A stretch of DNA of 32,000 nt from Balneola sp. (GTDB lineage: Bacteria; Bacteroidota; Rhodothermia; Balneolales; Balneolaceae): contig OZ254085.1 of NCBI GenBank assembly GCA_965267565.1, positions 368,605-400,604 of the forward strand, in the 5' to 3' direction. Positions within the stretch are counted from its first letter, which is position 1, and every line of letters begins with the position of its first letter. Below are positions 2 to 24,044 of the stretch, piece after piece. Below the pieces are notes generated by a model that saw nothing but the letters and a program-made list of their open reading frames with translations, was not told the origin of the DNA and made no database searches. Position numbers and translations under genes: made by a program.

Positions 2-1225
2 GGAGTGTTCGTATTCTTTTTTGGTGATATAGCAGCTGATTCCCGTTACAATGATCCCCTCCCGGATACACTTGATGTGAGCGGTCAGGAATTTAACGGA
101 ACAGCCGGAGAAGTGGACTTTGGTGTTACCTACACAGCTGATGCTGATACCGGATGGAATCTGGTTGGTAATCCATTTGGTGCTACCATTGATTGGGATG
201 ACTCTCCTAACTGGACTAAAACGAATATTGAATCCACTATTTATATCTGGGATCCGGCTGCTAACGGAGGTAATGGCGAATATTTAACATGGAATGGAGT
301 AACAGGAACATTAGGAAGTGGACTCATCCCTCCTTTTCAGGGATTCTGGATTAAAGCCTCGGCCACAAGTCCGGAGTTGAAAGTTACCACTGATGCAAAA
401 ACGACCGGAGGTTCATTTCTTAGAAAAGAAGTTCAAAGTCAATCTCAATTTGATGAACCAACTTTTGAATTAGAGTTATCTGCAAACGGACTTCAAAAAA
501 CAGCCAGTTTTGTATTTACAGATAACGGGAAAAAAGGAAAAGATCCATTTGATGCCTTTGAATTACTTCCGCTAACCAACAATCGGCTTGAAATCTTTAG
601 CTTGCTTGGCGACAACACCCCACTTGTAATTAATAACCTACCCAGAGAACTTACTAATCGACTTATAATTCCTGTGGGTGTTAATGGGTTTCAAAATGGT
701 TTACCTATAAGTGGCGATTATTTACTTAGAGCTATTAATTTTGATAACATTCCGGATGAATGGCTTATCATTTTAACTGATAACGATACAGGTGAACAAA
801 TTGATTTAAGAATACAGGAAGAATACGATTTCTTCCACACTACTCGAGGAAAGGCAAAAGTTGCAAAACCTAACACTCAAAGAAAAGTAGTGAGTTCGCA
901 ATCATCAAATACGCGCTTTACGCTCAAAATCACTACTGAAGAAATTGAAGCCAACATACCCGAAACTGCTTTTTTATCTCAAAACTACCCAAACCCTTTT
1001 AACCCTGAAACAACCATTCCATTTGGCATTGATGTAGATTCAGATGTTACTCTTGAGGTATTCGATATCCTTGGCAGAAAAGTCAGTACAGTAATTAATC
1101 GTCGGTTAACTGCCGGAACTTATAATATCAATTTCCAAGCTCAGAACTTAGCAAGCGGAGTATACTTCTATAGACTTACTACCGAATCAAAAGTATTCAT
1201 AGAAAAACTTACACTCATAAAGTAA
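2..1225 (+). CDS. secreted protein, 5'-truncated by the window edge, with T9SS (Por) type-A C-terminal sorting domain
   Basis: The reading frame is open to the window start, so the GTG at 5 is unlikely to be the true start. The last ~80 aa (about nt 980-1222) show the T9SS CTD pattern: LSQNYPNPFNPETTIPF ... VTLEVFDILGRKV ... LASGVYFYRLTTES ... KLTLIK. Confidence 0.8.
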   Translation, partial: GVFVFFFGDIAADSRYNDPLPDTLDVSGQEFNGTAGEVDFGVTYTADADTGWNLVGNPFGATIDWDDSPNWTKTNIESTIYIWDPAANGGNGEYLTWNGVTGTLGSGLIPPFQGFWIKASATSPELKVTTDAKTTGGSFLRKEVQSQSQFDEPTFELELSANGLQKTASFVFTDNGKKGKDPFDAFELLPLTNNRLEIFSLLGDNTPLVINNLPRELTNRLIIPVGVNGFQNGLPISGDYLLRAINFDNIPDEWLIILTDNDTGEQIDLRIQEEYDFFHTTRGKAKVAKPNTQRKVVSSQSSNTRFTLKITTEEIEANIPETAFLSQNYPNPFNPETTIPFGIDVDSDVTLEVFDILGRKVSTVINRRLTAGTYNINFQAQNLASGVYFYRLTTESKVFIEKLTLIK

Positions 1226-1309
1226 TTTCGGAAATTTTAAAGCACATTAGAACGTTCTTATTAAAAAGAATTAACTGGTTTTTTTTAATTATATGTGCAA
1301 TCATTAAGT

Positions 1310-1813
1310 ATGAAAAATATAGTCATAGCAATCTTCTTAATAGTATTTTCAAGCCAACATTTATACGGTCAGGAACAGGACATTCAGGTTTCAGGAGATG
1401 TAAGAGTAAATGCAAATGTGGTTTCGAGTATTGATTTGATCACAGTCCAGTCTATGACGTTTGGAAACGTTCAACCTGGTCAACAAGAAATTTATATCAA
1501 TCCTATCAACAGTATTAACGCTGGCTTCATGATAGCGACAGGAAATCCCGAAGCATCTTTCAGATTAACTTATTTACCTGAAATAGTTCTAACCCAAGTA
1601 GATGGTACCTCAACCTTAACTTTCACATACGAAATATCAGGTAATTCTATAGAGAATCAATCTACTTCCGAATTATTAGACACCGATAACAGATCGATTC
1701 AGTTTAGTCTTGAAGGCAGGTACTATTTTTGGATCGGCGGTAGAATAAATATTACAAATGCAGCTCCCGGTAATTATGAAGGAGACTTTACAATAGAGAT
1801 AGACTATATATAA
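1310..1813 (+). CDS. secreted fibre/pilin-like subunit, paralog 1 (DUF4402-like by motif)
   Basis: Signal peptide MKNIVIAIFLIVFSSQHLYG/QE. The start is moved from GTG 1295 to ATG 1310. It shares two motifs with the next three ORFs: N-proximal QSMTFGNV, and the C-terminal YYFWIGGRINITNAAPGNYEGDFTIEIDYI-stop. Confidence 0.65.
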   Translation: MKNIVIAIFLIVFSSQHLYGQEQDIQVSGDVRVNANVVSSIDLITVQSMTFGNVQPGQQEIYINPINSINAGFMIATGNPEASFRLTYLPEIVLTQVDGTSTLTFTYEISGNSIENQSTSELLDTDNRSIQFSLEGRYYFWIGGRINITNAAPGNYEGDFTIEIDYI

Positions 1814-1852: not shown

Positions 1853-2509
1853 ATGAAAAGCATTTTACTACATATCTTTTCATCTCTAAGAAGCATTAAG
1901 AATTTAAAGTTCATTGCTTCAATCAGTCTTATTTTTTCTGTGATTTCAGGATCAAATAACTCATCATCTTTTGTTTCTGCACAAGAAATCAATTTTGGAC
2001 AATACAGCAGTGCTTACAGCATTACATTATCAGAATTTATTCCTTCTGAGGACCTGGATTTTGGAACATTGATTCAGAATCAAGGACCTGCCTTAATTGA
2101 TTTGGTAAATGCAAAAGTTCTTACCCTTGAAGGTGTTAAATACCTGGATGTAATTGTTGATATCACTGCTGATAATTACTTATTACTGAACGGTGATTTA
2201 GGATGTGAAACAGATCCCACATGCAGAATACCATTTACTTTACAAGCTGCATATGCAAACAGAGGAAATAACAATGTAAATGAGTCCGTAAATATCTCTG
2301 TACTATCCAACGTAGCAACCGCTCAATTCCAAATATTAGAAAGAACCGACGGTCCTCCGGGCCCACCTCCTACTCCGGTCTATGAGGGTTATGATCCAAG
2401 CGTGTTCAATGAAACCGCCTATTTGTATATATATGGATCAGTAAACGTTGGGAATGTTGACGCTGGAAGTTACTCCTCGAGCATATCCGTTACCATAAAT
2501 TATGATTAG
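1853..2509 (+). CDS. secreted fibre/pilin-like subunit, paralog 2 (largest; Cys pair and poly-Pro insert)
   Basis: N-terminal hydrophobic leader ending VSA/QE. Family motifs EDLDFGTLIQNQG and AYLYIYGSVNVGNVDAGSYSSSISVTINYD-stop are present. Extra segments are GCETDPTC and GPPGPPPTP. Confidence 0.6.
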   Translation: MKSILLHIFSSLRSIKNLKFIASISLIFSVISGSNNSSSFVSAQEINFGQYSSAYSITLSEFIPSEDLDFGTLIQNQGPALIDLVNAKVLTLEGVKYLDVIVDITADNYLLLNGDLGCETDPTCRIPFTLQAAYANRGNNNVNESVNISVLSNVATAQFQILERTDGPPGPPPTPVYEGYDPSVFNETAYLYIYGSVNVGNVDAGSYSSSISVTINYD

Positions 2510-3035
2510 GTCAGCCATATTCATATTGATTAGCTCAATGTGGGTATTACTTAATCTGACCCCTGCAAATAGCCAGTTTATCAATCTCAGGCTTAAAATT
2601 GAACCGGAACTTAATGTAACCATTGAACAGTCACTTGATTTCGGTGAAGTTGTTACAAATTCAGGATACACGGAGGTTGAGCTTGGCGATGTAAGAATGG
2701 GGGTTTTTTCAATCAGAGCCTATTACACACAAAATATACAGATTTCAATGTCTGTTCCGGATGAACTTACAAATATTAATCCGGCCATAACTGATGAGAT
2801 TCCTTTGGAATTAGAGGCTTCTTATAATAATTCAGGTGTAAATGATATTAGTAAAGCCGTTCCTCTATCCGATAATCAGGGTATGATTTTAATATATGAA
2901 GGGGAAGAAAACGCTCCTCGACCAAATGATGTTTGGCAGGAAATGTTTTTATATGTGTATGGCGGAATAGATGTAGGGAATATACCAACAGGTACATACA
3001 CAGCAGAGGTAGTTGTGAGTGTTACCTATGAATAG
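2502..3035 (+). CDS. secreted fibre/pilin-like subunit, paralog 3
   Basis: The ATG overlaps the upstream stop by 8 nt, suggesting translational coupling. Leader is MIRSAIFILISSMWVLLNLTPANS/QF. Family motifs are QSLDFGEVVTNSG and MFLYVYGGIDVGNIPTGTYTAEVVVSVTYE-stop. Confidence 0.65.
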   Translation: MIRSAIFILISSMWVLLNLTPANSQFINLRLKIEPELNVTIEQSLDFGEVVTNSGYTEVELGDVRMGVFSIRAYYTQNIQISMSVPDELTNINPAITDEIPLELEASYNNSGVNDISKAVPLSDNQGMILIYEGEENAPRPNDVWQEMFLYVYGGIDVGNIPTGTYTAEVVVSVTYE

Positions 3036-3153: not shown

Positions 3154-3705
3154 ATGAAAAATCTAAAATACATACTCGCTGCTTTGGTATTTGTTGCTTT
3201 TGCTAACACTACCGCTGTTGCACAGGAAACGCAGGATATTAATACTTCTGCTGTTATCCTTGCTGATATTGCCCTTACTTTCGTTTCTGATGTAAGTTTC
3301 GGTAACATTCAGGACACAGGTTCTCCTGTACTTGACCCTCAAGGTACTAATACTGCTGATGTTGGTGGTGGTGCTACTTTTGGAAAATTCTCTATTTCAG
3401 CTGCTAACTCTACTCAATTAGTTATTGACTGGGATCAGGCCACTGTTACTTTAAGTGATGGAACTAATTCTATGACTTTTACTCCTGATGTTTCAGCTAA
3501 TAGTACTGACGCTATTGCATCATCAAGTGATGTAACTAAAGCTACTGCAAACGCAGCTACAGAAACATCCGGTGCTGGTGCATTGTTTGTTTACGTTGGT
3601 GGGAATTTAGGTACACTTTCAGGTCAGGCAGCAGGTACTTACACTTCTGATAGTGGTACTGCAGGTGCTTCTGGTGATTTAACTTTCACTGTTAATTACC
3701 AGTAA
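3154..3705 (+). CDS. secreted fibre/pilin-like subunit, paralog 4; candidate major subunit
   Basis: Signal peptide MKNLKYILAALVFVAFANTTAVA/QE. The mature part is strongly T/S/A/G-rich. Family motifs are SDVSFGNIQDTG and ALFVYVGGNLGTLSGQAAGTYTS...GDLTFTVNYQ-stop. The ...YQ end resembles the C-termini of the classical chaperone-usher pilins FimA and PapA. The gene has its own upstream gap and a strong terminator directly downstream. Confidence 0.7.
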   Translation: MKNLKYILAALVFVAFANTTAVAQETQDINTSAVILADIALTFVSDVSFGNIQDTGSPVLDPQGTNTADVGGGATFGKFSISAANSTQLVIDWDQATVTLSDGTNSMTFTPDVSANSTDAIASSSDVTKATANAATETSGAGALFVYVGGNLGTLSGQAAGTYTSDSGTAGASGDLTFTVNYQ

Positions 3706-3728
3706 TTAATACTTTGATAGAATTAAAA

Positions 3729-3756
3729 GTCTCGTTTCCAACGGGACTTTTTTTTT
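3729..3756 (+). terminator. rho-independent terminator after the paralog-4 subunit gene
   Basis: GTCTCGT-TTCCA-ACGGGAC forms a 7-bp stem (one G-U pair) followed by a run of 9 T, 24 nt after the stop codon. Confidence 0.75.
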
Positions 3757-3773: not shown

Positions 3774-3781
3774 TAAATTTG
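3774..3781 (+). promoter_or_regulatory. candidate -7 box TAAATTTG (TAnnTTTG) ahead of the chaperone-like gene
   Basis: The octamer matches the Bacteroidota -7 consensus and lies 49 nt upstream of ATG 3830, just after the terminator. No clear -33 TTG partner is present. Confidence 0.25.
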
Positions 3782-3829
3782 GTATTAATTCTTTACTTTA
3801 CTGCAATCATTTACAATAAAAAAGCAGTT

Positions 3830-4663
3830 ATGAAAATAAAAAGGGTTATAACGAGCGGCTTACTTTTGAGTATGATACTATCTGCGAGTCTTTTTTCGCA
3901 GGTGACCATTGCTCCTACAAATTTATTCCTTGATGATAACTCAAGGTTCGGAACATTTATGGTGATTAATAATTCGCAACAACCACAGGAAATCTCTATT
4001 GATTTCTTATTCGGATATTTTGACACCAACGAAAACGGCGACAAAAGTTTTGTCAGAGACAGTTCTGAAATTGAACAACAATATTCAATAGCAAGTAGCG
4101 TGAGGGCATTCCCTCAAAATTTTGTACTGCAAAGTGGCGATCGGCAAATTGTACGTTTGCGAATCAGTGCGCCACAGAATTTAGTTGATCAAACCTACTG
4201 GGCCCGGGTTAGAACTACTTCAACCCCTGAGAGCCCACCTTTAGAACTTGGAGCTTCTGAAACTGTGAATGCTCAAATTGGAGTTAAATTTGAACAAGTA
4301 ACAGGTTTATTCTACAAAGTTGGAGATACAAACACAGGGATAAACATAAATCAGATACGGACAAATTTGATTGATGAAAACACCATTCAAATTTTGTCTG
4401 ATTTTGAACGTACAGGGAATTCTCCCTTTTTGGGCACTGTAACTACTTCAATAATAAAAGATGGAAGAACAATCCGTACCTCTTCCCTTTCAACAAGCTT
4501 TTATTTTAATGGGACACATGGACATACTTTTAATATTGAAGATATGGAGCCCGGAAGTTATGAGATCAAAGTTGAATTTGTATCAGAGCGAAATGACATA
4601 TCAGATTCTGATTTAGTACAAATGACACCTTCAGTTTCAAGTACCACCGTTCAAATACAATAA
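3830..4663 (+). CDS. periplasmic pilus-assembly chaperone-like protein (PapD-like, divergent)
   Basis: The start is moved from TTG 3779 to ATG 3830. Signal peptide is MKIKRVITSGLLLSMILSASLFS/QV. The mature N-terminus VTIAPTNLFLDDNSRFGTFMVINNSQQPQEISIDF and the later segment FPQNFVLQSGDRQIVRLRISAP...QTYWARVRTTS follow the PapD_N strand pattern. Size and position, between the subunits and the large OM protein, also fit. Confidence 0.5.
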   Translation: MKIKRVITSGLLLSMILSASLFSQVTIAPTNLFLDDNSRFGTFMVINNSQQPQEISIDFLFGYFDTNENGDKSFVRDSSEIEQQYSIASSVRAFPQNFVLQSGDRQIVRLRISAPQNLVDQTYWARVRTTSTPESPPLELGASETVNAQIGVKFEQVTGLFYKVGDTNTGININQIRTNLIDENTIQILSDFERTGNSPFLGTVTTSIIKDGRTIRTSSLSTSFYFNGTHGHTFNIEDMEPGSYEIKVEFVSERNDISDSDLVQMTPSVSSTTVQIQ

Positions 4664-4699: not shown

Positions 4700-7684
4700 T
4701 TGAGAGATTGGTTCAAAATAGCAAAAGGATTATGCTTCATTCTCTTGTGTGTACTTCTAACACAGCCTGAAGCTATAGCTCAGAATACTTCTGATGAAAC
4801 TGAAGTATATCTCGAATTCAGGCACCGCGGTATTATTAACTCTGTTATCATCTCTTATTACAAAGATGATATTTTTTTCTTACCCGTTAACGAAATCTTC
4901 GACCTCCTCGATATAGAGAATAACCAGGATGGATTAACGATATCCGGGGATTTTTCATTAGAGCAAACCCCTTACGAAATAAATCTTCAGGATAATTTCA
5001 TAAGGTTTGGAGATAATCGATATCAAATCTCTTCAGAAGATTATTTAATCAAAGAAATAGACTATTACCTTAGACCCGGTTTATTCCTGGAAATATTTGA
5101 GTTAGAGTTCATGGTGGACTTCAGCAACCTTCGCCTGAATTTGGTCACTCAAAAAGAACTCCCGGTTGTCCAAAAAGTATTAAGAAATCAAAAAAGAAGA
5201 GTAGCTGATAATAACAGATTTTCTAACGAGAATTATGATTTAAAGTTTGCCCGCAAAAAACCCTTCATAGATGGAGGATTTGTAGACTATAACCTATCTG
5301 CAAACCTGTCCGATCAGATTAATATTTACAATTATAACAGTAATGTTGGATTACAGCTGTATGGAGGAGATCTTCAGGGTTCATTATTTGGAAGTTTTTC
5401 TGAAAACTTTTCCAATTTTGCTACTAATAATCTCCGCTGGAGAAGGTTTTTCAGGAACCAAAATCTTCTAACTAAGTTAACCATTGGTCAAACCCAAACA
5501 GATGGGGTTAACAGAAGCTCATACACAGGAATTCGTATTTCGAATGAACCTGTTGAGCCTCGTCTTCTGTTTGATGAATTTGAAGTTCAGGGAAGAACTT
5601 TACCCGAATCGGAAGTGGAGTTATATCTCAACAATGCATTGATAGACTTTCAGGTGTCTGATCAGGCTGGAAATTATCGGTTCTTAGCCCCTCTTACTTA
5701 TGGTTCAACACAATTGGATTTAAGAATTTATGGACCAACGGGGCAAATTATTGAAAGATCAAACCGTATTCAGGTTCCTTTTAACTTTCAGCCCGCAGGC
5801 GTTTTCAATTATGTTGCAAATATTGGGGAGCTCGATAATCCATTAATCGGTACAACAGATCGGGTATTAACTGCACAGGGTTCGGGATCATATGGTTTGT
5901 CTGAGTGGCTTACAGCAAAAGCAGGTATTGAATACTACGAGGGTTTTCATACATCAAGACCTACTTTTATTTCTTCTCTGTCGTCCAGAATTCTTACAAA
6001 TTATATTTTTACGCTTGAAGGCGCTACAGACGCTTTTTATCGATCAACTTTGAGCGCTATTTACCCAAATTCTGCAAGTTTTAATATAGATTTTATAGAC
6101 TATTCTTCCGGATTTAGTATTTATAACCCATCTAATGACGACAAAAGATTAAGTACTACTCTATTCTACCCTTTTACTTTTGGTTCAACCCCTTTTAATT
6201 TCAGAGTTTCTGCTTTTTCACGTTTTGGTGAAACATCCAATATTACCACATTCAGAGTGGATGCAAACTCACGTATTGACAAATTTAATTTCAGAGTCGG
6301 TTATACGGATCGCTATTTTGGTGAATTTGATATTTTGTCCCCAACAAGTTTATCGGCCATTGAAAACTCTGTTACTTATACCATTTCAAGAGGAAGAAAC
6401 ATTCCTTCTTATTTAAAGGGTACTTTTCTAAGAGCTCAAATGAGATATTTGCCTGTTCAAAAGGAAATTGAATCAGCTCAGTTTTTTATTTCGCGAAGTA
6501 TTTTCAAAAACGGAAGGTTTCAACTTTCAGTAGGCAGAAACTTCCTCAACCAATTCAGTTCGGTTAGATTTAGTTTCACCATAGATCTAAACAAAGTCAG
6601 ATCGAGCTCCAATTTCAGTTCAATAAGAGATAATTATAATATTACGCAAAACATCCGCGGTTCTGTTGGTTACGATACCAACTACAATAATTTCTTATTT
6701 ACCAGCCGTGAGCAAGTAGGAAGATCCGGCACTGCAGTAAGACTTTTTGTAGACAATAATAACAATGGGACTTTTGAAGAAGATGAAGACGATCCAATAA
6801 GTGAAAATGCTCTTCGGGTTACCAGATCCGGCGCCATGAACCACACAAAAAACGGCATTCTTTACTTCACCCAAATGCAGCCCTACTTCTATTACAACAT
6901 GGAATTAAATAAAGGCGCAATTAGAAATCCAATGTTGGTTCCGGAATTCGAAAACTTTGGATTGATTACTGATCCAAATCGCTTCAAAAAAGTAGAAATC
7001 CCTTTTTATATGTCAGGTGTGGTTGAAGGAACAGTAGAAAGATTATATGAAAATGGAAGACAATCAGGAATAGCAGGATTAAAAGTTTTGATTTCTTCTA
7101 ATGACGGAGACTTTTTGAAAGAAATCCGAACGTTCTCGGACGGTAGTTTTTATTCATTTGAAATACCTCCGGGAGACTATACAATCAGAGTTGATCAGAG
7201 TCAGTTAGAAATATTGGACGCAAAAGTACGCGACAGTCTTCCTACTTTTGAGGTGAGAGCAATTCCAGAAGGGGATTTTATTGAAGGTTTAAATATTGTA
7301 CTTGTTCCTGAAAACTTCGACGATTCGGATCTTGAAGTAGTTCGTGAAACTACCATTCTGGCTGATCTTGAGGGCAGTTCAGAACTACTCAATTTTGAAG
7401 CTGATTTACAGGATAAAGTGGACGAAACTCTACGCTTGATTGTTCAGGCTCAGAACGCCTTTTATAACAAAAATTTAAATCAAGCATTAGATTTTGTTAA
7501 TCAATCTTTGGAAATCTTTGAAACAGCCCAAGGATATGCCTTGAAAGGCAGTTTATTGTACTTAAAGGGTGATAAAGAAGAAGCTCAAAAAAGCTGGAAT
7601 ATGGCAACAAGATTTAATCCAGATATTTATATTCCTGAGGTAGAAACTTTGGACCAAATCATCAAAACAGAACCAGGCGATTAA
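4700..7684 (+). CDS. large outer-membrane protein in the usher position, with C-terminal CarboxypepD_reg-like beta-sandwich and TPR-like tail
   Basis: TTG start (uncertain) and signal peptide GLCFILLCVLLTQPEAIA/QN. The ~700-aa central region is rich in alternating aromatic/polar beta-strand patterns. About nt 7016-7310 encodes GVVEGTVERLYENGRQSGIAGLKVLISSNDGDFLKEIRTFSDGSFYSFEIPPGDYTIRVD. About nt 7429-7623 encodes a TPR-like helical tail. Confidence 0.5.
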   Translation: MRDWFKIAKGLCFILLCVLLTQPEAIAQNTSDETEVYLEFRHRGIINSVIISYYKDDIFFLPVNEIFDLLDIENNQDGLTISGDFSLEQTPYEINLQDNFIRFGDNRYQISSEDYLIKEIDYYLRPGLFLEIFELEFMVDFSNLRLNLVTQKELPVVQKVLRNQKRRVADNNRFSNENYDLKFARKKPFIDGGFVDYNLSANLSDQINIYNYNSNVGLQLYGGDLQGSLFGSFSENFSNFATNNLRWRRFFRNQNLLTKLTIGQTQTDGVNRSSYTGIRISNEPVEPRLLFDEFEVQGRTLPESEVELYLNNALIDFQVSDQAGNYRFLAPLTYGSTQLDLRIYGPTGQIIERSNRIQVPFNFQPAGVFNYVANIGELDNPLIGTTDRVLTAQGSGSYGLSEWLTAKAGIEYYEGFHTSRPTFISSLSSRILTNYIFTLEGATDAFYRSTLSAIYPNSASFNIDFIDYSSGFSIYNPSNDDKRLSTTLFYPFTFGSTPFNFRVSAFSRFGETSNITTFRVDANSRIDKFNFRVGYTDRYFGEFDILSPTSLSAIENSVTYTISRGRNIPSYLKGTFLRAQMRYLPVQKEIESAQFFISRSIFKNGRFQLSVGRNFLNQFSSVRFSFTIDLNKVRSSSNFSSIRDNYNITQNIRGSVGYDTNYNNFLFTSREQVGRSGTAVRLFVDNNNNGTFEEDEDDPISENALRVTRSGAMNHTKNGILYFTQMQPYFYYNMELNKGAIRNPMLVPEFENFGLITDPNRFKKVEIPFYMSGVVEGTVERLYENGRQSGIAGLKVLISSNDGDFLKEIRTFSDGSFYSFEIPPGDYTIRVDQSQLEILDAKVRDSLPTFEVRAIPEGDFIEGLNIVLVPENFDDSDLEVVRETTILADLEGSSELLNFEADLQDKVDETLRLIVQAQNAFYNKNLNQALDFVNQSLEIFETAQGYALKGSLLYLKGDKEEAQKSWNMATRFNPDIYIPEVETLDQIIKTEPGD

Positions 7685-7709: not shown

Positions 7710-9563
7710 ATGGATAGGTTATATACTTTAATCATTAATAAAATACCTTTTAAGCAATATGTATTAGCTTTCACAGCTATTGTTATGTGTTTTTCAATCG
7801 CTCAGGTTCAGGCACAAACAAGTTCAGGGGCAGGCTTTTCACAATCTGATGATTTACAAATTGCAACCATAGAGCAAAGTTACGATTCTCAGGTTATCCA
7901 GGTAATATCTAATCATTTTGACAGAAAAAAATTCTTTGTTGATGTTAACATCGACGCTGATATTATCCAGGATACCATCACAACTCAAAATCAAATTCTG
8001 ACCTCAAGAAATCAGAACATTGCTCTTCCGGGACTTCCTTTTCTACCGGATGATAACTTGCAGAATGTCGGACCTACAACCGGTAATGAGTCAGCGTTAA
8101 GCCAAAATGTTACCAGAAGGCTTATACTGAATAATATCATAGTAAATATTTATGCTGATACCAGCTTTTCTGTACCTGAACTGGATTTTATGAGGCAAAT
8201 TGCGGGGTTTGCTGCAAAAACAAATCCTGCGAGAGGCGACCAAATTAATATTACTCAGCTTGCTATACCTGATCCTGATTTTGAGCCTATTCCGATCGAA
8301 TCTACTAACATTAATGAACAAGTAGCAGAGCCTGAGACTTTCTTCTCTTCTTTAGGTGATTATATTACTGAATTCATTTTAATAGGCTTGTTTATTTTGT
8401 CTCTCATCGCAAACAGTGTTTTTTACAGAGATAAACAATCAAGTTCTAACCTCCGGCTTGAAAGAGCAAGTTTTAACTTGGAAGGAAATTTCCCGGGAAA
8501 TAACAATCCCTCCGGAGATCCTTTTGCGGGCGAAAGCCGCTCCTTAAATATAACTACTTCATCAGAAGAAGAGTTTTCAATGAAAGAGTTTGATGAATTG
8601 GCTAAAAACTTTTTTACTAAACCCGAAGAAACGGCTCTTCTTTTAGAATACTGGATTGATGAAGATCCGGTAAATGGAGCAACAAAAGCTGCGGAAATTA
8701 TCGCATCGGGGGATTCTACGCTGATCCGTTCCATTAAAAAAGATTTGCCTGAGGAAAAATATGAGGAAATAGTTCAGGCTTTAGAAGAACTATCTCCAAT
8801 GACTATTGAAGAGAAAAACAAAGCAGCTAAATATTTTAATACACTCATTAAAGAAGGTGATAACAAAGAGTCTAAAAAGAAGAATTACGCAAATTTAGGC
8901 CTCTTTAAATTTTTAGAGCATGTTACCAATCACCAGCTTATGGAGCTTCTCAAGAATGAAACAAATCAAACTGCAGCTCTTGTAATTGATTATCTGCCGG
9001 AAGATAAAGCCGCTGAATTGCTGAATAAATTGGATGGCGAAAAAGCTGCTGAGATCATGCTCAAGATGTCAACTTTACACAATCTCACCTATAAACAACA
9101 TAGCTTTATATCGTCCCGACTTTTTGATAAGGTAGTAGAGATCAGAGACGTTGAAAAACAGGAAAAAATGGGAATGGAAAACATCCTCCCAATCCTTGAA
9201 AAGCTACCAGTAAAAGAACAGAAAAAATATATTGAGCAGATTAAAGCATCCGGTTCTGTATTGGGAGAAATGCTTGAGAAACAATTCCTGACAATTGATC
9301 AGATTCCTGATCTTGATAATGAAATAATCAAAGAAGGTGTTGAGGCTTTAAACACTCCTACTCTTTTAGACTCTTTAGTTGGCTTGGATAAAGAAATTAT
9401 AGATAAAATATTGGCTGTACGCCCAAAAAGAGAGCAGAAATTAATACGTATGGAACTTGAAGAAATGGAAGGATCAGATGGTACTGATCAGGCAAAATCT
9501 AAATTGCTAAGCTCTTTAAGAAAATCCTACACCGAACATCTTCAGGAAGAAGTCGTTGAATGA
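7710..9563 (+). CDS. membrane protein with FliF-like periplasmic/TM part fused to FliG-like (N/M/C) cytoplasmic domains
   Basis: There are two hydrophobic segments, aa ~17-35 and aa ~217-239. The periplasmic stretch RRLILNNIIVNIYADTSFSVPELDFMRQIAGFAAKTNPARGDQINITQL resembles the end of the FliF/YscJ ring-building region. On the cytoplasmic side, LLKNETNQTAALVIDYLPEDKAAELLNKLDGEKAAEIMLKMSTL resembles the FliG middle-domain EHPQ region. ILAVRPKREQKLIRMELEEMEG...AKSKLLSSLRK resembles the FliG C-terminal torque-helix region. Confidence 0.55.
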   Translation: MDRLYTLIINKIPFKQYVLAFTAIVMCFSIAQVQAQTSSGAGFSQSDDLQIATIEQSYDSQVIQVISNHFDRKKFFVDVNIDADIIQDTITTQNQILTSRNQNIALPGLPFLPDDNLQNVGPTTGNESALSQNVTRRLILNNIIVNIYADTSFSVPELDFMRQIAGFAAKTNPARGDQINITQLAIPDPDFEPIPIESTNINEQVAEPETFFSSLGDYITEFILIGLFILSLIANSVFYRDKQSSSNLRLERASFNLEGNFPGNNNPSGDPFAGESRSLNITTSSEEEFSMKEFDELAKNFFTKPEETALLLEYWIDEDPVNGATKAAEIIASGDSTLIRSIKKDLPEEKYEEIVQALEELSPMTIEEKNKAAKYFNTLIKEGDNKESKKKNYANLGLFKFLEHVTNHQLMELLKNETNQTAALVIDYLPEDKAAELLNKLDGEKAAEIMLKMSTLHNLTYKQHSFISSRLFDKVVEIRDVEKQEKMGMENILPILEKLPVKEQKKYIEQIKASGSVLGEMLEKQFLTIDQIPDLDNEIIKEGVEALNTPTLLDSLVGLDKEIIDKILAVRPKREQKLIRMELEEMEGSDGTDQAKSKLLSSLRKSYTEHLQEEVVE

Positions 9564-10105
9564 TGGGTTTATCTGGGAAAAACCATATCAAGTATCTTTT
9601 GTATGTAATTGGTATATCACTTTGCATTGAGGTGGGATGTACATCTTCGAATCAGGTTTCAGAAACTCCGCAAGAACAAAATGATACTGCAAATATTGAC
9701 GATGGTTTAAATCAGCAAATCGTTAATGAAAATAATAAAAGATCGGATGAAGCTATTCGCGACTCTTTGAATGCTGTTTTAAAAGACGAAATTCATGCTC
9801 AATATCAGTCGCAGGCTAACCGGCTTACTACATTTTATATATTGGCACAACAACGGTTTTATAGTGGAGATTACCAACAAGCACTTTTTTTGATCAACAG
9901 AGCTGCAAATATTAAAGAGTCCGCTGATGTACTGGCTTTAAGAGGCAGCATTTATTTTGGCTTGGGATCAATTGAAAACTTCGTTTCCAACTGGAGAGAA
10001 GCATTAGAGAAAGACCGGAACGTACCAATACCGCCCTCACCCCCGATCATTGAAGAGCTAAAAAATCAGGGACTAATAAATGAAAATCTTGAACGTAACT
10101 TTTAG
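9560..10105 (+). CDS. TPR-like periplasmic protein (possible lipoprotein)
   Basis: The ATGA overlap with the upstream stop suggests translational coupling. A hydrophobic leader ends in ...IEVGC (Cys27; atypical lipobox). The helical segment FYILAQQRFYSGDYQQALFLINRAANIKESADVLALRGSIYFGLGSIENFVSNWREALEKD is TPR-like and paralogous to the tail of the 994-aa protein. Confidence 0.5.
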   Translation: MMGLSGKNHIKYLLYVIGISLCIEVGCTSSNQVSETPQEQNDTANIDDGLNQQIVNENNKRSDEAIRDSLNAVLKDEIHAQYQSQANRLTTFYILAQQRFYSGDYQQALFLINRAANIKESADVLALRGSIYFGLGSIENFVSNWREALEKDRNVPIPPSPPIIEELKNQGLINENLERNF

Positions 10106-10114
10106 AAATTTTAA

Positions 10115-10912
10115 ATGAAGATTTCATTTTCTAACATCATCAGCTTTTTAGTTTCATTGGGAATCCTTGTGTGGGGTTCTTTGATGGTGATTGGTTTTGC
10201 AGAATACAATGTAATCCCTTCAGACTTTGAGTTCCTTAACCTGCCAAGTTTAGCTATTGTATTCGGAGGAATAACAGCAAGCGTATTTATTAGCTATCCC
10301 TTTCGAAAAGTTGTAAGAGCATTTCGTGAAAGCTTTCGCCTGTTCTCCCAAAGTAATATCGACGATAAACTGCTTGAGCAAGACATTGAAAATATTCTTG
10401 AGTGGCAAAAGATGATTCGAATCGACCGAAACGCTGCTGTAGCGCAGTTAAGTGAGCAATACAGCGGACAATTTGAAGGATATTTGTTTTCGATACTGGA
10501 TACCAATTACTCCACAGAGGAGTTCAGAGAATTAGGTGAAATCAATATTCAGGAAACTTATACTCGGCAACAGCAAATAAATCAGATTATGGTAAGTATG
10601 GGTAAAACCGCACCGGTATTTGGTATGCTGGGAACTTTGTTTGGTCTGATTGTCATCCTTTCCGGTTTTAATGAAGTGGATTCTCTCCTTTCCGGTCTCG
10701 CAGCTGCCTTAATGACCACTTTATATGGGATTTTAATTGGGAATTTCATTTTCACACCAATGGCAAAGAAGATGAATAATATTGCTTCGCTACAGTACTT
10801 CCGGGAAAAAATGATTTTAGAAGGCGTTTTACTGATACAGGAGCAAAAATCTTCTCTTCAAATTTACGACAAGCTTAAAGCTCACATGCATCGAAATGTT
10901 CAACAATTTTAA
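10115..10912 (+). CDS. MotA/PomA-type stator A subunit (MotA/TolQ/ExbB proton-channel family)
   Basis: Four-TM layout with a ~100-aa cytoplasmic loop between TM2 and TM3. TM3 is TAPVFGMLGTLFGLIVIL. TM4, LAAALMTTLYGILIGNFIFTPMAKKM, closely follows the PomA/MotA pattern (ALLTTLYG....N..F.P.A.K). Confidence 0.8.
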   Translation: MKISFSNIISFLVSLGILVWGSLMVIGFAEYNVIPSDFEFLNLPSLAIVFGGITASVFISYPFRKVVRAFRESFRLFSQSNIDDKLLEQDIENILEWQKMIRIDRNAAVAQLSEQYSGQFEGYLFSILDTNYSTEEFRELGEINIQETYTRQQQINQIMVSMGKTAPVFGMLGTLFGLIVILSGFNEVDSLLSGLAAALMTTLYGILIGNFIFTPMAKKMNNIASLQYFREKMILEGVLLIQEQKSSLQIYDKLKAHMHRNVQQF

Positions 10913-10926
10913 GGTACTGCCAAGCT

Positions 10927-12663
10927 TTGAAAGTTGATGATCCATATAATAAAAAACAGTCATTATATCCCGAGCAGGAATTAGAATCTGCTGATGATGA
11001 TAGCTGGCAGGTCAGTTATCTCGATATAATCACTATTATTCTGGGCTTTCTCATTATCCTGCTATCCGTTTCTTCTTTAAAAGAAATAGAAACCTTTTCG
11101 GTATCCGATCTTTTTAAATCATCTGAAAATGAGACGGAGTTCATCACCACTCCAATCGAGCAAATTAAAGAACGTTTAGAGGCACTTCTTGCACAGGAAA
11201 TTGCAGATGGACAATTAGAAATCTATCGGGAGCTCAATGATGTGAAAATTCGCTTCAGAAGTGATGATTTATATCAATCGGGAAGTGCCGAAATTCAACC
11301 CGAAGCAAGTGCTTTGTTAAACCGAGTTCTGGCAGCTTTTAAACTAATCGAGTATGACGATTTTGAAATTGATGTGGAAGGTCACACTGATAACGTTCCT
11401 ATTACTACCGCTGCTTATCCATCCAACTGGGAACTTTCTACCGCTCGTGCCTCCAATGTCGTAAAATATTTCAATGAATCAGGAATTAAAGACGATAGGC
11501 TGAAGGCTTCCGGGTATGCTTCTTCTCGTCCTGTTGTGGAATTCGATGATCGGGGAAACCCTGTGGCTGCTTCAAAAAGTAAAAACAGAAGAATTGTATT
11601 GCGACTGTTTTATTCCAATCCTGATCAGATGTTAGCTGACCAAACAGAAGCAGTAGAAGAAATAACCGAAGAACCTATTGAAACTCCTGAGAATGAGCAG
11701 ATTCTCCCTGAAAATTCGCGGGAAACTGAAGCAGAGGAAGAGCCTCAAAACAACGAGCCAATTGCTCAAATCGAAAATTCCGCTTCACCAGAAGTAGTCG
11801 AGGAAGAAACTCCGGAGTCTGTTAACGAAGTGCAGGAATCTCAGCCTGAGACTATTAAAAGTAATACTTCGACTCCATCCACTCCACCCTCTTCCGGAAA
11901 TGAAGATAATATACAAGGATGCAGATACTCGGTTCAGGTGGGCAGTTATGAATCATTCGCAAACAGTATAAGAGTTGCTAACAGAACGGAAAATCAAACT
12001 TCACGATCTTTCGAAATCGTTTACAACAACTTTCTCTTCTCTGTTCGAAGTAATGCCTTCAATTCACTAACCCGTGCTTACCGTTTTAATGATCAATTTT
12101 CTGATGCCAATGATTCAGAAGAACCTTCTGCAGTTATTTATCAGTGTTATCAACAGGACTATCAGTATCCTAATTCGCTTAATTATGTTATTCAATTAGG
12201 CTTTTTCCAGAACGAACAAAATGCGCTTAATTTTCAACAAACACTTGCAAACGAATATGGTATTGACGCCAAAATTGAGTCATTATCAGTTCAGGCTTAT
12301 ACAGTTTTCGCCGGACCATATTCTGACAGGAAAGAAGCTCAGCAAAAAATTAGTGAGTTTCGTCAAAATGATATTCTGAGCAACGTTTTTCTTAAATATG
12401 ATCCCAAAACTGTTTCTGATTATTCCTACGATTATCAAATAATCGCAGGATCTTATCGAAGTAAAACCAGAGCTTTTCAAATTTCTCAAAGCCTGCAAGA
12501 TCTCCTAAATATTAGTTCTGAAGTGATCACAAAAGAGGATGGAAATTCTTATGTAATTACTCAATCTCAGAATAACTGGGATGATACACTAATAAGACTT
12601 GAGCAGTTGGCAGGAAGTAATCTAAACCTCACTCCTGTTATTTATTTGACCGAGAGGAGTTAA
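10927..12663 (+). CDS. MotB-type stator B subunit (OmpA-like peptidoglycan-binding domain) with acidic linker and three C-terminal SPOR-like repeats
   Basis: TTG start (uncertain). The N-terminus SWQVSYLDIITIILGFLIILL is a MotB-like TM with a conserved Asp. The OmpA-like domain is FRSDDLYQSGSAEI...VEGHTDNVPI...SNWELSTARASNVVKYF...NRRIVLRL. A Glu/Pro/Thr-rich linker spans about nt 11620-11916. SPOR-like repeats begin YSVQVGSYES, YVIQLGFFQNEQNALNFQ...YTVFAGPYSDRKEAQ and YQIIAGSYRSKTRAFQ. Confidence 0.8.
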   Translation: MKVDDPYNKKQSLYPEQELESADDDSWQVSYLDIITIILGFLIILLSVSSLKEIETFSVSDLFKSSENETEFITTPIEQIKERLEALLAQEIADGQLEIYRELNDVKIRFRSDDLYQSGSAEIQPEASALLNRVLAAFKLIEYDDFEIDVEGHTDNVPITTAAYPSNWELSTARASNVVKYFNESGIKDDRLKASGYASSRPVVEFDDRGNPVAASKSKNRRIVLRLFYSNPDQMLADQTEAVEEITEEPIETPENEQILPENSRETEAEEEPQNNEPIAQIENSASPEVVEEETPESVNEVQESQPETIKSNTSTPSTPPSSGNEDNIQGCRYSVQVGSYESFANSIRVANRTENQTSRSFEIVYNNFLFSVRSNAFNSLTRAYRFNDQFSDANDSEEPSAVIYQCYQQDYQYPNSLNYVIQLGFFQNEQNALNFQQTLANEYGIDAKIESLSVQAYTVFAGPYSDRKEAQQKISEFRQNDILSNVFLKYDPKTVSDYSYDYQIIAGSYRSKTRAFQISQSLQDLLNISSEVITKEDGNSYVITQSQNNWDDTLIRLEQLAGSNLNLTPVIYLTERS

Positions 12664-22003: not shown

Positions 22004-22684
22004 TTACTGATTGCTAATTTTATATCGAACTAATTCATCAACTGTAGGCCGGGTTCCGTTTTGTTCAATCAGATAAGCGGCTGTTCTGTCGGTTACATCA
22101 ACTCCACGCATTCTCATCAAATTTTCCTTGGTAAGTTCTTCCTTAGTATATCCTAAATCCATCATCCGACTTGTAAAGTTAGCTGTAACGCCCGCTCTTC
22201 GTGTTTCTGCAAGTTCTGCAATAGAAAGGTCATATCCGAGCTCCTTCATCATTCCGGCATAAGTAGCACTAACGCCGGCATTTTGAAGTTCTATAAGCTG
22301 ATCTAAAGTAACATCCGTATAACCAAGATCATGAAGCCGCTGTGTTTCTGTAGCTGTTACACCCTCATCGCGGAGCGCTGATAATTCTTCATTGGTCAAC
22401 TCTCCGTAACCTAATTGCTCCATCCATGTTCCCATTCCAGCGAGTAAATCCGGATCGTATTCGTTAAAAGATTGAGCAAATTCTGTAATCGGGGTTTCAA
22501 TATCGAAATCAACCTGAGAACCCACATAAAAGGTGAGTGTGGCTACAAAAGCAAAAAGCAGGATATAGTTAGAAAGCTTACCTGAATTGGAAGATTTATC
22601 CAGTTTACTTTGGTTTAGCTGGGATGTGGTATCATCCTCGAGATCTTTCAGATCGTTTTTAAGGTTTTTGAATCTCGTACTCAT
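22004..22684 (-). CDS. single-pass membrane protein with four tandem ~30-36-aa LGY...GV(T/S)A helical repeats
   Basis: TM segment YILLFAFVATLTFYVG. The repeats are QLGYGELTNEELSALRDEGVTATETQRLHD, LGYTDVTLDQLIELQNAGVSATYAGMMKE, LGYDLSIAELAETRRAGVTANFTSRMMD and LGYTKEELTKENLMRMRGVDVT. Confidence 0.5.
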   Translation of the reverse strand: MSTRFKNLKNDLKDLEDDTTSQLNQSKLDKSSNSGKLSNYILLFAFVATLTFYVGSQVDFDIETPITEFAQSFNEYDPDLLAGMGTWMEQLGYGELTNEELSALRDEGVTATETQRLHDLGYTDVTLDQLIELQNAGVSATYAGMMKELGYDLSIAELAETRRAGVTANFTSRMMDLGYTKEELTKENLMRMRGVDVTDRTAAYLIEQNGTRPTVDELVRYKISNQ

Positions 22685-22747
22685 AACGCCCTTTAAATTT
22701 GCTTGATAGTTACGAAAGATCTACAAAAAAGATGCAAAAAAATTATA

Positions 22748-23113
22748 TCAACTTACCAGTTTAAGTGATTTATCAAGGTCTCCGATTGTAAAAGGCTTAA
22801 CTATAAGATCTGCAAATTCGGTATGCTTAGCTCTTTCAAAATTGAGTCGATCAGAATTACCTGTGAGATAAATCACATGTGGGTTTATAGTTTCTTTTAT
22901 TTTTGCAACGGTGTCGATGCCATCCATTTGCCCTTTCAAGCGTATATCCATTAGCAAGATATCAGGTTTTTCAGATCTTGCAATTTCGACTGCATCTTCA
23001 CCTGAAACTGCTTTACCAGCTACTAAAAACCCTAATTCTTTGACCATGTTTTCCACGACCAAAGAAATAATCATATCGTCCTCTACAATTAGTACTTTTT
23101 TTTGCTTGCTCAT
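22748..23113 (-). CDS. stand-alone response-regulator receiver domain (CheY-like)
   Basis: KVLIVEDDMII...PDILLMDIRL...VIYLTGNSD...KPF. The protein is 121 aa with no output domain. Confidence 0.85.
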   Translation of the reverse strand: MSKQKKVLIVEDDMIISLVVENMVKELGFLVAGKAVSGEDAVEIARSEKPDILLMDIRLKGQMDGIDTVAKIKETINPHVIYLTGNSDRLNFERAKHTEFADLIVKPFTIGDLDKSLKLVS

Positions 23114-23192
23114 CCTATGCTGCTAATTTTTTAGTCTTATCGACTGAAACCCAAATAAATTTAATAGTAAATAAATATAGAAAATTTTTGTT

Positions 23193-24044
23193 CTATGTTA
23201 TCAATTCTGTTTTCAAAATTTCTCCGGTTACTGTGCTAATATAAACAAACCATCTGATTTCAGAGGTGTCTTCCTGCAAAACTGAAATTTTCCACGTTTT
23301 ATGTATTTCAGCACCACCCTCCTTTTCAATCAAATTATATTCCAGTTCAACTTCATCTATTACGTGCTCAGATTTAATTTCCTGCTCAAATATTTGATTT
23401 TGCTCATTTGCATATCGCACTTTTAAACCTATCACACTTTCCTTAGCAGCATTTGAACCGACATCAACAAAACCAGGATCTTCAATATCAGGATACCAAT
23501 TACCCCAGATTCTGTTTACTCCATTCGCATCCACATAAACTACTACTGACGTATTTTCAACCGGCACGCCATTTACAAATTGGTTTTCGAAGGTAAATTT
23601 CCACTGTAATGGTACATTATTTATATCCTGACCTTCGCAAATTGTGCAGCCGTCCAGTGAGATCATTTCTTTTATTTTTAAACTTGTAGGATCTGTAACT
23701 CCGGTATACTCTGCATTTTTTGCTACTGTATTTTTTGCCAATTGCAATATTTCATCGCTGTATTGCAGCTCTATTTTGACTTCATCTCGCGAAAGGCATG
23801 GATTTTCATCATTAGGGAAAAGTACTCTGCTGAATCCTGTGAAGCCATATTCGTTCAGAGTGGAACAAATTAAATTATCATTCTCCTGATGATATCTTGA
23901 ATTTAATTCTTCCAAAGTTTGTCTTTCCAAAGTTGGAATAAATACAGGATATTCTTCATCAATTTCAGGATCAGAAATTGATTCGCAATTTGCCAGTAAA
24001 CAACAAATCGCAATTAATACTAAAAAGTGCTTTTTATTAGCCAA
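23193..24044 (-). CDS. hypothetical lipoprotein (PepSY-like C-terminal motif)
   Basis: Leader ...LIAICCLLANC/ES is lipobox-like. The C-terminus WKISVLQEDTSEIRWFVYISTVTGEILKTE resembles PepSY. Coordinates are taken from the ORF track. My hand recount near 24000 was off by one base, so the start codon was not verified. Confidence 0.45.
   Translation of the reverse strand: MANKKHFLVLIAICCLLANCESISDPEIDEEYPVFIPTLERQTLEELNSRYHQENDNLICSTLNEYGFTGFSRVLFPNDENPCLSRDEVKIELQYSDEILQLAKNTVAKNAEYTGVTDPTSLKIKEMISLDGCTICEGQDINNVPLQWKFTFENQFVNGVPVENTSVVVYVDANGVNRIWGNWYPDIEDPGFVDVGSNAAKESVIGLKVRYANEQNQIFEQEIKSEHVIDEVELEYNLIEKEGGAEIHKTWKISVLQEDTSEIRWFVYISTVTGEILKTELIT

Follow-up and report, generated by a model that had tools for sequence, protein, structure and literature searches.

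What a flagellar-type stator serves when it is encoded next to an outer-membrane pilus usher is the question raised by a 32,000-nucleotide (nt) stretch of a Balneola sp. genome (assembly GCA_965267565.1, contig OZ254085.1, positions 368,605 to 400,604 of the forward strand), called here the window. Two adjacent genes of the window encode the MotA-like A subunit and the MotB-like B subunit of a stator, the latter ending in three tandem SPOR-like repeats (SPORx3); their reading frames had been placed exactly by an initial annotation made from the letters alone (Table 1). For the pair and its surroundings, domains were identified by computation, conserved residues and gene order were determined and purifying selection was shown, and these results suggest that the operon to which it belongs encodes an undescribed ion-driven envelope machine. 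The explanation preferred here, which is given about even chances of being right, is that the pair is the stator of a conserved operon joining a flagellum-derived rotor-stator to an outer-membrane pilus usher, and that as such it serves no flagellum.

The A subunit matches MotA_ExbB in Pfam (PF01618; 61.8 bits, E 6.8e-17), and solved flagellar stators align with it over the full length, namely C. sporogenes MotA (2.6e-24), Paenibacillus MotA (1.6e-20) and Vibrio PomA (7e-17). Its topology, with the transmembrane (TM) helices TM1-TM2, a cytoplasmic loop of ~95 amino acids (aa) and TM3-TM4, is the flagellar-type four-TM layout described in the initial annotation, not the three-TM layout of ExbB/TolQ, and the protein has the motif ALMTTLYG...N.IFTPMAKK, which hardly varies. 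Invariant are P167 and P215, which are the conserved prolines of TM3 and TM4, as well as T174, T201/T202 and N210, and the loop has conserved basic residues at K99, R/K102 and K/R105, followed by the acidic E111, E114 and E115. The gene is the best conserved of the cluster, with 65-95% aa identity across loci. All NCBIfam matches are to flagellar MotA, MotP or PomA models, and the protein scores below every equivalog cut-off among them (MotA, PomA, MotP), the best score, for MotP, being 109 bits where 394 are required. Regarding the coupling ion, the residues equivalent to T158, T186 and N194 of PomA and to D24 of PomB are conserved, and the Na-type Met165, Met179 and PomB Leu35 are replaced by Ile, Leu and Ile in the window stator; this mapping, our own, was made against a PomA sequence with residue roles taken from PMC11725901, and no ion is assigned.

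The B subunit has matches to MotB_plug (25.3 bits, cut-off 24), OmpA (65.7 bits, E 4.8e-18) and SPOR (E 5.8e-15) in Pfam, the three families for which the initial annotation had proposed a search. That annotation had read in it a MotB-type TM helix with an essential Asp, an OmpA-like anchor, an acidic spacer behind the anchor and three SPOR-like repeats, and all of these parts were recovered. Asp33, within SYLDIITIILGF, stands at the position of the channel Asp in the alignment with C. sporogenes MotB and is invariant, together with Tyr31 and Thr36, in 75 of 75 relatives. By homology, the two subunits would form a MotA5:MotB2 complex, acting as an ion channel and rotary motor. The linker has 101 aa, with 28% Asp plus Glu, 12% Pro and 2% Lys plus Arg; among orthologues its length ranges from 20 to 160 aa and only the composition is kept.

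Repeat 2 passes the Pfam SPOR model (PF05036; cut-off 21) with 46.1 bits on its own and 55.8 bits as part of the full protein, repeat 1 alone reaches 17.4 bits, under the cut-off, and repeat 3 alone has no match to this model. The homology of the three repeats is drawn from the comparison of family profiles with hhalign and not from Pfam alone: repeat 3 matches repeat 2 with a probability of 98.8% (E 9e-17), repeat 1 matches repeat 2 with 96.3% and repeat 3 with 96.6%, and the top solved-structure match of the profiles of repeats 1 and 3 is the SPOR domain of B. subtilis CwlC (1x60; E 7e-3 and 6e-4, respectively). By these profiles, the three C-terminal segments are homologous SPOR-like repeats, and they occur in the same order in 47 of 48 Balneolales MotB orthologues, the exception having a single repeat. 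Two cysteines bracket repeat 1, Cys332 (nt 11920-11922) and Cys407 (nt 12145-12147), and are invariant in 21 of 21 aligned orthologues; the FtsN SPOR domain has a conserved Cys pair with a reported disulfide, and Cys332 and Cys407 may likewise be joined by a disulfide in the periplasm. SPOR domains typically go to the septum, and the role that the initial annotation proposed for the repeats, in targeting to septa or new poles or in gripping peptidoglycan at two depths, is a plausible hypothesis.

While the domain reading of the pair in the initial annotation stands, its treatment as an isolated pair does not, the two genes being the 3' end of an operon with the genes for an outer-membrane usher, a fusion of FliF and FliG parts that is a candidate rotor (FliFG) and a TPR lipoprotein. 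The genes for usher, FliFG, TPR lipoprotein, MotA and MotB form a run on the same strand with gaps of 25, -4, 9 and 14 nt. A scan with one genome per species found 51 loci. Forty-seven are Balneolales or Balneolales-type, including those of Balneola sp. EhC07, G. tropica DSM 19535 (L046) and a metagenome-assembled genome (MAG) of Aliifodinibius (L043), some of the 47 carrying other MAG titles (Roseivirgaceae, 'Bacteroidota', 'bacterium'); the remaining four are distant (a KSB1 genome, a Calditrichaceae fragment and two unclassified MAGs). Across the ~47 Balneolales loci the gene order is invariant, with three or four genes for DUF4402 proteins, a-b-c-(d), followed by those for a 294-aa secreted protein (p294), usher, FliFG, TPR lipoprotein, MotA and MotB. 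The flanks of the cluster vary, and in some loci sigma-54 is found downstream in place of pyruvate dehydrogenase. The database search for B subunits with the plug-OmpA-SPOR architecture, which the initial annotation had also proposed, gave more than 100 full-length relatives, and those with a named source are all Balneola, Balneolaceae or Balneolales, save for one 'Bacteroidota bacterium'. Looking up the exact B subunit of the window in the contig index gave no match.

The protein encoded between the usher and the TPR lipoprotein is a natural FliF-FliG fusion. It matches FliG_N, FliG_M and FliG_C in Pfam, and its family profile matches T. maritima FliG (2.5e-21). The torque helix RPKREQxLIRxELE aligns with KRAAALLKDELE of T. 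maritima, R574 and E582 being aligned with the Arg and Glu of that FliG; R574, E582 and R604, which we take to correspond to R281, D289 and R297 of E. coli FliG, are invariant in 33 FliFG homologues. In the AlphaFold2 (AF2) model, the periplasmic part has an alpha-beta-beta-alpha-beta domain and a long hairpin with a disordered tip bearing the sequence PGLPFLP. Foldseek searches with this model retrieved full-length FliG (E 2e-7) as well as the RBM3/collar of the FliF MS-ring (RBM3 and S-ring entries, E 3e-4 to 7e-3, target TM-scores of ~0.5). The periplasmic domain of the window protein itself has no Pfam FliF match; its assignment to FliF comes from the structure model and from three distant homologues that match YscJ_FliF_C in Pfam with 27.7 (KSB1), 23.7 and 22.5 bits. 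There is a single ring-building motif (RBM) between the leader and the TM helix, and RBM1, RBM2 and a separate C-terminal FliG-binding tail are absent. The PGLPFLP sequence (aa 107-113, nt 8028-8048), at the tip of the RBM3 hairpin, is invariant, and L-P-G-L-P..P is at least 90% conserved even among FliFG relatives that are only 20% identical; it is likely an interaction peptide, perhaps for the TPR domains. The TPR lipoprotein has weak TPR matches and is 43% identical to the TPR protein of the KSB1-type cassettes described below, and nearly all its orthologues have a hydrophobic leader ending in Cys.

The presence of FliG also bears on whether the pair could belong to a Zorya-like anti-phage system or to another 5:2 motor family (ExbBD, TolQR, GldLM, AglRQS). 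MotB matches the ZorB models of PADLOC (E 3e-20), as expected from generic MotB homology. However, there is no ZorA match, the 265-aa MotA does not have the long ZorA tail, the genes for ZorC, ZorD and ZorE are absent, and neither the four-TM MotA/PomA topology nor an adjacent FliG is a feature of any of these families. A Zorya or other defence system was rejected for lack of ZorA and of ZorC/D/E, and membership in any of these families is the most improbable of the readings considered.

No flagellar export, rod, hook, filament or switch genes were found within 10 kb of the cluster in ~80 loci, and the 32-kb window has no further flagellar gene. Homologues of the pair, for which the initial annotation had left open an exclusive place in canonical flagellar operons, were never found in such operons. 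At the level of whole genomes, for which the literature was used, KEGG flagellar-assembly genes have been reported as absent from Balneola, Fodinibius, Rhodohalobacter and G. tropica and as partly present in Aliifodinibius (PMC9909488). Balneola vulgaris has been described as motile and flagellated (PMC5167729), at odds with PMC9909488 for the genus Balneola, and the scan with one genome per species has no B. vulgaris locus. This description, the Aliifodinibius genomes that have many flagellar genes in addition to this cluster (L043), and the resemblance of both subunits to flagellar stators above all others would agree with a role of the pair as additional stator units, combined with an unusual FliG, of a true flagellum whose genes lie elsewhere in the genome. 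Such a role is improbable in view of the full cluster of G. tropica (L046), a species described as non-motile, and of the clusters in genera reported to be without flagellar-assembly genes; furthermore, FliG is fused here to a single-RBM fragment of FliF and has a degenerate FliM-binding motif, the cassette stands alone in many lineages, and the scores are far under the NCBIfam equivalog cut-offs (109 vs 394 and 142 vs 283 bits).

Between the window MotA and its closest relative there is 95% aa and 79% nt identity, with 0.045 nonsynonymous substitutions per site (dN) and saturated synonymous substitutions (dS). The dN/dS ratio is ~0.05 (0.048) for the MotB core and 0.47 for the linker, and SPORx3 has a dN of 0.32; dS being mostly saturated even against the closest relative, only dN and the contrast between aa and nt identity are relied on. 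The stator genes are under purifying selection. The partial flagellar gene sets of Balneolaceae have been read as gradual loss (PMC9909488), and the genes of the window could by extension be decaying relics of a lost flagellum, now without function. This is contradicted by the selection data, namely the low dN of MotA with saturated synonymous sites and the low ratio of the MotB core, and also by open reading frames (ORFs) that are intact in ~47 genomes, by the invariant channel and torque residues and by the same cassette being kept in distant lineages; a relic is thus very improbable.

The usher gene directly upstream of FliFG encodes a protein with the FimD/PapC fold, its model consisting of an N-terminal domain, a barrel into which a plug-like segment is inserted, and, in the C-terminal part, two beta-sandwich domains and a TPR domain. 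Foldseek aligned this model with FimD/PapC over 740-945 columns (E 4e-28 to 2e-19), and Pfam Usher (PF00577) was matched in one usher homologue. The TPR domain is 28% identical to the TPR lipoprotein of the motor (E 1e-9) and 36% identical to the KSB1 TPR protein (E 3e-13), and by these alignments it is a paralogue of the motor lipoprotein. The four DUF4402 paralogues of the window have leaders, an N-terminal strand of alternating hydrophobics and a common C-terminal G.Y....I.Y motif; the DUF4402 a profile has no meaningful match against PDB sequences, and nothing was found on DUF4402 in the literature. For p294, whose size and gene position would suit a PapD-like chaperone, no Pfam or PDB match was found, the hhalign comparison with PapD gave a probability of 0.6%, and the label of chaperone is not claimed. 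A strong terminator-like hairpin follows the gene of DUF4402 d, which for this reason is possibly the major subunit; the hairpin may reduce the read-through of transcription from the subunit genes to those of assembly and motor.

The motor genes are found beyond Balneolales. A search of 1.84 billion cluster representatives with the FliFG profile gave 143 clusters (50% identity) at E<1e-30, most of them of 570-750 aa and matched across both the periplasmic and FliG parts. A metagenome scan seeded with one FliFG subfamily gave 42 loci, ~30 of which were long enough to be read, and all of these contain a five-gene cassette of FliFG, a protein named X (357-395 aa), the TPR lipoprotein, MotA (270-276 aa) and a short MotB (220-230 aa) without SPOR, with unrelated housekeeping genes as neighbours. 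Protein X, for which there is no Pfam match and no meaningful PDB-sequence match, is a candidate outer-membrane barrel on the basis of its terminal signals (Table 1), and it is absent from the Balneolales loci. Protein X as the ancestor of SPORx3 or as a homologue of a window protein was rejected, all hhalign probabilities being <6%. Because X is absent from Balneolales, the usher adjoins FliFG and the usher bears the TPR paralogue, the reading given here is that the usher, having acquired a copy of the TPR domain of the module, replaced X in this order, taking its place as the outer-membrane partner of the motor.

The usher homologues of several Gracilimonas species (including G. mengyeensis and G. 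halophila) have 1164-1549 aa and SPOR domains at the end. In the one locus of this kind that was read for neighbours (Gracilimonas sp., L057, 10001-13516), genes were found for DUF4402 proteins, a p294 homologue and the usher, and none for FliFG, TPR, MotA and MotB. The C-terminus of this usher (aa 913-1161) is collinear with the three repeats of the window MotB (aa 332-577; E 5e-16), both beginning with CRYxVQ, and the simplest history would be an in-frame deletion reaching from the TPR domain of the usher into the linker of MotB. Since SPORx3 was kept when the motor was lost, its role would concern the envelope apparatus, by anchoring or placement, and not torque generation as such. The conservation of the repeats in 47 of the 48 MotB orthologues, together with their fusion to the usher in these motor-less genomes, ties SPORx3 to the usher/pilus apparatus.

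The window locus is a mosaic. Its pilus half (p294 and the N-terminus of the usher, 84-85% aa) is nearest to L012/L013, its motor half (FliFG 74%, MotA 95%, MotB 84/62%) is nearest to L006/L007, and the housekeeping flanks are about equally similar to L006, L007, L012 and L013. Because the closest relatives differ, this suggests that the pilus and motor halves have been swapped as separate modules. The separate recombination of the two halves speaks for a rival explanation, in which FliFG-TPR-MotAB is an autonomous envelope motor, for example with Tol-Pal-like tethering or energising of the outer membrane or a SPOR-directed role at the division site, and is only adjacent to the usher locus. 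The five-gene cassettes of KSB1 and the ~30 metagenomic loci, without usher or DUF4402 and with unrelated flanks, the hairpin parting the subunit genes from the rest, and the septal association typical of SPOR domains add to it. However, an autonomous motor would leave aside the usher that bears a paralogue of the TPR domain of the module, the loss in Balneolales of X, present in every other cassette, with the usher directly upstream instead, the gap of only 25 nt between usher and FliFG, and the fusion of SPORx3 to the usher in genomes without the motor. It is regarded here as the main rival, though rather unlikely.

Under the preferred explanation, the stator of an operon joining rotor-stator and usher, the following mechanism is proposed, of which rotation, TPR coupling, usher output and SPOR ligand are inferred. 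Ions passing MotB Asp33 would turn the MotA pentamer, which would push the torque helix of FliG, so that the FliFG ring in the inner membrane would be turned or strained. The TPR lipoprotein and the TPR domain of the usher would contact the periplasmic collar of the ring, with its PGLPFLP loops, and ion-motive force could thus reach the usher in the outer membrane. Candidates for the output of the usher are gating of the plug, subunit hand-over or pilus assembly, and movement of the filament (rotation, retraction). As in flagella, the OmpA-like domain would fix the stator to peptidoglycan, and the flexible linker with SPORx3, specific to Balneolales, would provide a second, long-reach grip on glycan strands without stem peptides, which would anchor or localise the apparatus.

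Several points weigh against this explanation. To our knowledge, classical chaperone-usher assembly needs no energy input, and here the chaperone and pilin assignments have no sequence or structure match. On the side of the rotor, the confidence of the FliFG model is moderate (pLDDT 69.7, pTM 0.34), the FliM-binding EHPQ motif is degenerate in the family, as E-x-x-Q (NETNQ or tedkq), and neither FliM nor FliN is in the cluster, so that the ring may differ greatly from a C-ring. The loop charges of MotA cannot be equated with E. coli R90/E98, the basic-to-acidic spacing being 9 vs 8 residues and the positions varying. As to the link with the usher, all usher-linked loci are from one order, where adjacency could partly reflect shared descent, and the generic cassette is found without any usher (KSB1 and ~30 metagenomic loci), such that the pilus link may be Balneolales-specific or merely positional. 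Finally, the pilus genes are kept in the motor-less Gracilimonas, so that at least some of the function does not require the motor.

A more far-reaching version would make of FliFG-(barrel)-TPR-MotA-MotB a new class of trans-envelope rotary machine, derived from the flagellar motor but without export apparatus or axial structure, of the Balneolales form the first chaperone-usher pilus powered by ion-motive force, and of SPORx3 the part that places it at remodelled or septal peptidoglycan; it is put forward tentatively, as something more likely wrong than right. In such an ion-powered pilus, a DUF4402 filament would be rotated, extended, retracted or gated by the motor, an idea that is equally speculative.

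Compared with known systems, the closest relation is to the flagellar motor, with which the cluster shares A and B subunits homologous over the full length, the channel Asp, plug and OmpA-like anchor, FliG N/M/C domains with the Arg and Glu of the torque helix, and a periplasmic domain resembling the RBM3/collar of FliF. In contrast to it, genes for a type III export apparatus, rod, hook, filament, FliM and FliN are absent from the window cluster, FliF is reduced to one RBM and fused to a FliG with degenerate EHPQ, MotB is extended by a linker and three SPOR repeats, and the motor is accompanied by a TPR lipoprotein and by an usher or barrel. Engineered or spontaneous FliF-FliG fusions of Salmonella and Vibrio likewise join MS-ring and FliG parts in one polypeptide and still form rings (PMC10941966, PMC11481574), but these are laboratory proteins with full-length FliF in a complete flagellum, whereas that of the window belongs to a family that is natural and widespread, has only one RBM and comes without a flagellum. 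No natural FliF-FliG fusion or FliG-MotAB cassette outside flagella was found in the literature.

Chaperone-usher pili (FimD/PapC, and the archaic Csu-type with SCPU subunits) have in common with the window the N-terminal domain, barrel with plug and two C-terminal domains of the usher, and the operon order of several small secreted subunits, a periplasmic protein of ~280 aa and the usher. The window usher differs by its additional C-terminal TPR domain (SPORx3 in Gracilimonas) and by the ion-driven rotor-stator module that follows it, as known systems use no outer-membrane energy source; the subunits are DUF4402 proteins and the chaperone is not recognisable. In Tol-Pal and TonB-ExbBD, an inner-membrane 5:2 ion motor also energises an outer-membrane protein, and Tol-Pal also has a TPR protein (CpoB/YbgF); the A subunit of the window is of the four-TM MotA/PomA type instead of the three-TM TolQ/ExbB type, and the force would go to a FliG ring, not to TolA/TonB. 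The repeats match Pfam SPOR and the SPOR domain of CwlC as in other SPOR proteins (FtsN, DamX, DedD, RlpA, CwlC), but here a stator B subunit has three in tandem as its C-terminal part, after an OmpA-like domain, and nothing linking SPOR to MotB was found in the literature. The MotXY/FlgT and PflAB scaffolds of high-torque flagella position stators by extra periplasmic TPR (PflB) or OmpA-like (MotY) parts; these are separate proteins around the flagellar rod, while the window has no rod and its extra peptidoglycan binder is a part of MotB itself.

The other genes of the window are listed in part in Table 1. Homologues (1000-1760 aa) of the surface protein sorted by the type IX secretion system (T9SS) are found just upstream of the cluster in many loci, although not in L001. 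The remaining genes are housekeeping (pyruvate dehydrogenase, alanyl-tRNA synthetase and others). On the reverse strand, a stand-alone response-regulator receiver (22748-23113) lies between two proteins without family (22004-22684 and 23193-24044), and the relative position of this trio (22004-24044) is kept in L001 and L004. A 641-aa protein (29138-31063), unrelated to the motor, is a fusion of a glucosamine-6-phosphate isomerase/6-phosphogluconolactonase-type domain and a PIG-L deacetylase domain.

Table 1. Features of the motor-usher cluster and its upstream neighbour; positions are those of the window unless another locus is given.
Feature	Position (nt)	Strand	Description	Basis
C-terminal part of large T9SS-sorted surface protein	5-1225	+	gene extends past the window start	Por_Secre_tail, E 3.7e-11
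DUF4402 protein a	1295-1813	+	candidate secreted pilus subunit; signal peptide	Pfam DUF4402, E 1e-7
DUF4402-like protein b	1853-2509	+	syntenic	weak full-length DUF4402 match, E 0.13; aligns with paralogues
DUF4402-like protein c	2502-3035	+	syntenic	weak full-length DUF4402 match, E 0.19
DUF4402 protein d	3154-3705	+		Pfam DUF4402, E 4.8e-5
Terminator/attenuator-like hairpin	3725-3751	+	12-bp stem and T run; between the DUF4402 d and p294 genes	
p294	3779-4663	+	294-aa secreted protein; position of a pilus chaperone	kept in all loci
Outer-membrane usher	4700-7684	+	FimD/PapC fold, 994 aa	AF2 (pLDDT 82.5), Foldseek
Usher TPR domain	~7346-7660	+	aa 883-987	
FliF(RBM3/collar)-FliG fusion (FliFG)	7710-9563	+	rotor candidate, 617 aa	Pfam, profile, AF2 and Foldseek
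FliFG leader			signal peptide or TM	
FliFG periplasmic domain	7848-8258		alpha-beta-beta-alpha-beta, aa 47-183	
FliFG TM			aa 211-238	
FliFG FliG N/M/C domains			aa ~290-617	
TPR lipoprotein of the motor module	9560-10105	+	start overlaps FliFG stop by 4 nt	
Stator A subunit	10115-10912	+	four TM, 265 aa	Pfam, PDB alignments, conservation
Stator B subunit, whole ORF	10927-12663	+	578 aa, TTG start	
B-subunit core	10927-11610	+	TM with Asp33, plug (aa 20-65), OmpA-like peptidoglycan-binding domain (aa 116-228)	
Linker	11611-11916	+	acidic, Pro-rich, low conservation, aa 229-330	
SPOR-like repeat 1	11917-12159	+	invariant Cys332 and Cys407	profile comparison
SPOR repeat 2 (canonical)	12175-12408	+	aa 417-494	Pfam SPOR
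SPOR-like repeat 3	12418-12657	+		hhalign vs repeat 2, PDB profile match
Protein X (example)	10804-11877 of L064 (loci L058-L091)		signal peptide and outer-membrane beta-signal ...YGLQxVFRF	

The role of rotor proteins in non-motile species was left open in a 2025 survey. The locus is a conserved example of a complete rotor-stator pair without a flagellum, in a defined operon and with candidate partners, which makes this open question testable, and cultured carriers are available in G. tropica DSM 19535 for the motor and in G. mengyeensis and G. halophila for the usher-SPOR fusion. The MotB-SPOR fusion would represent a new way to anchor a stator to the cell wall. The FliF-FliG fusion, as a minimal rotor, bears on the origin of the flagellum, in that it asks whether a rotor-stator core can exist and be of use without type III secretion. 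That the whole machine is a new class is a conjecture, more doubtful than the preferred explanation. If the coupling to the usher is true, the rule that chaperone-usher pili need no energy source for their assembly would no longer hold, and flagellar-type 5:2 motors would gain a fourth output, after swimming, gliding/T9SS and Tol/Ton.

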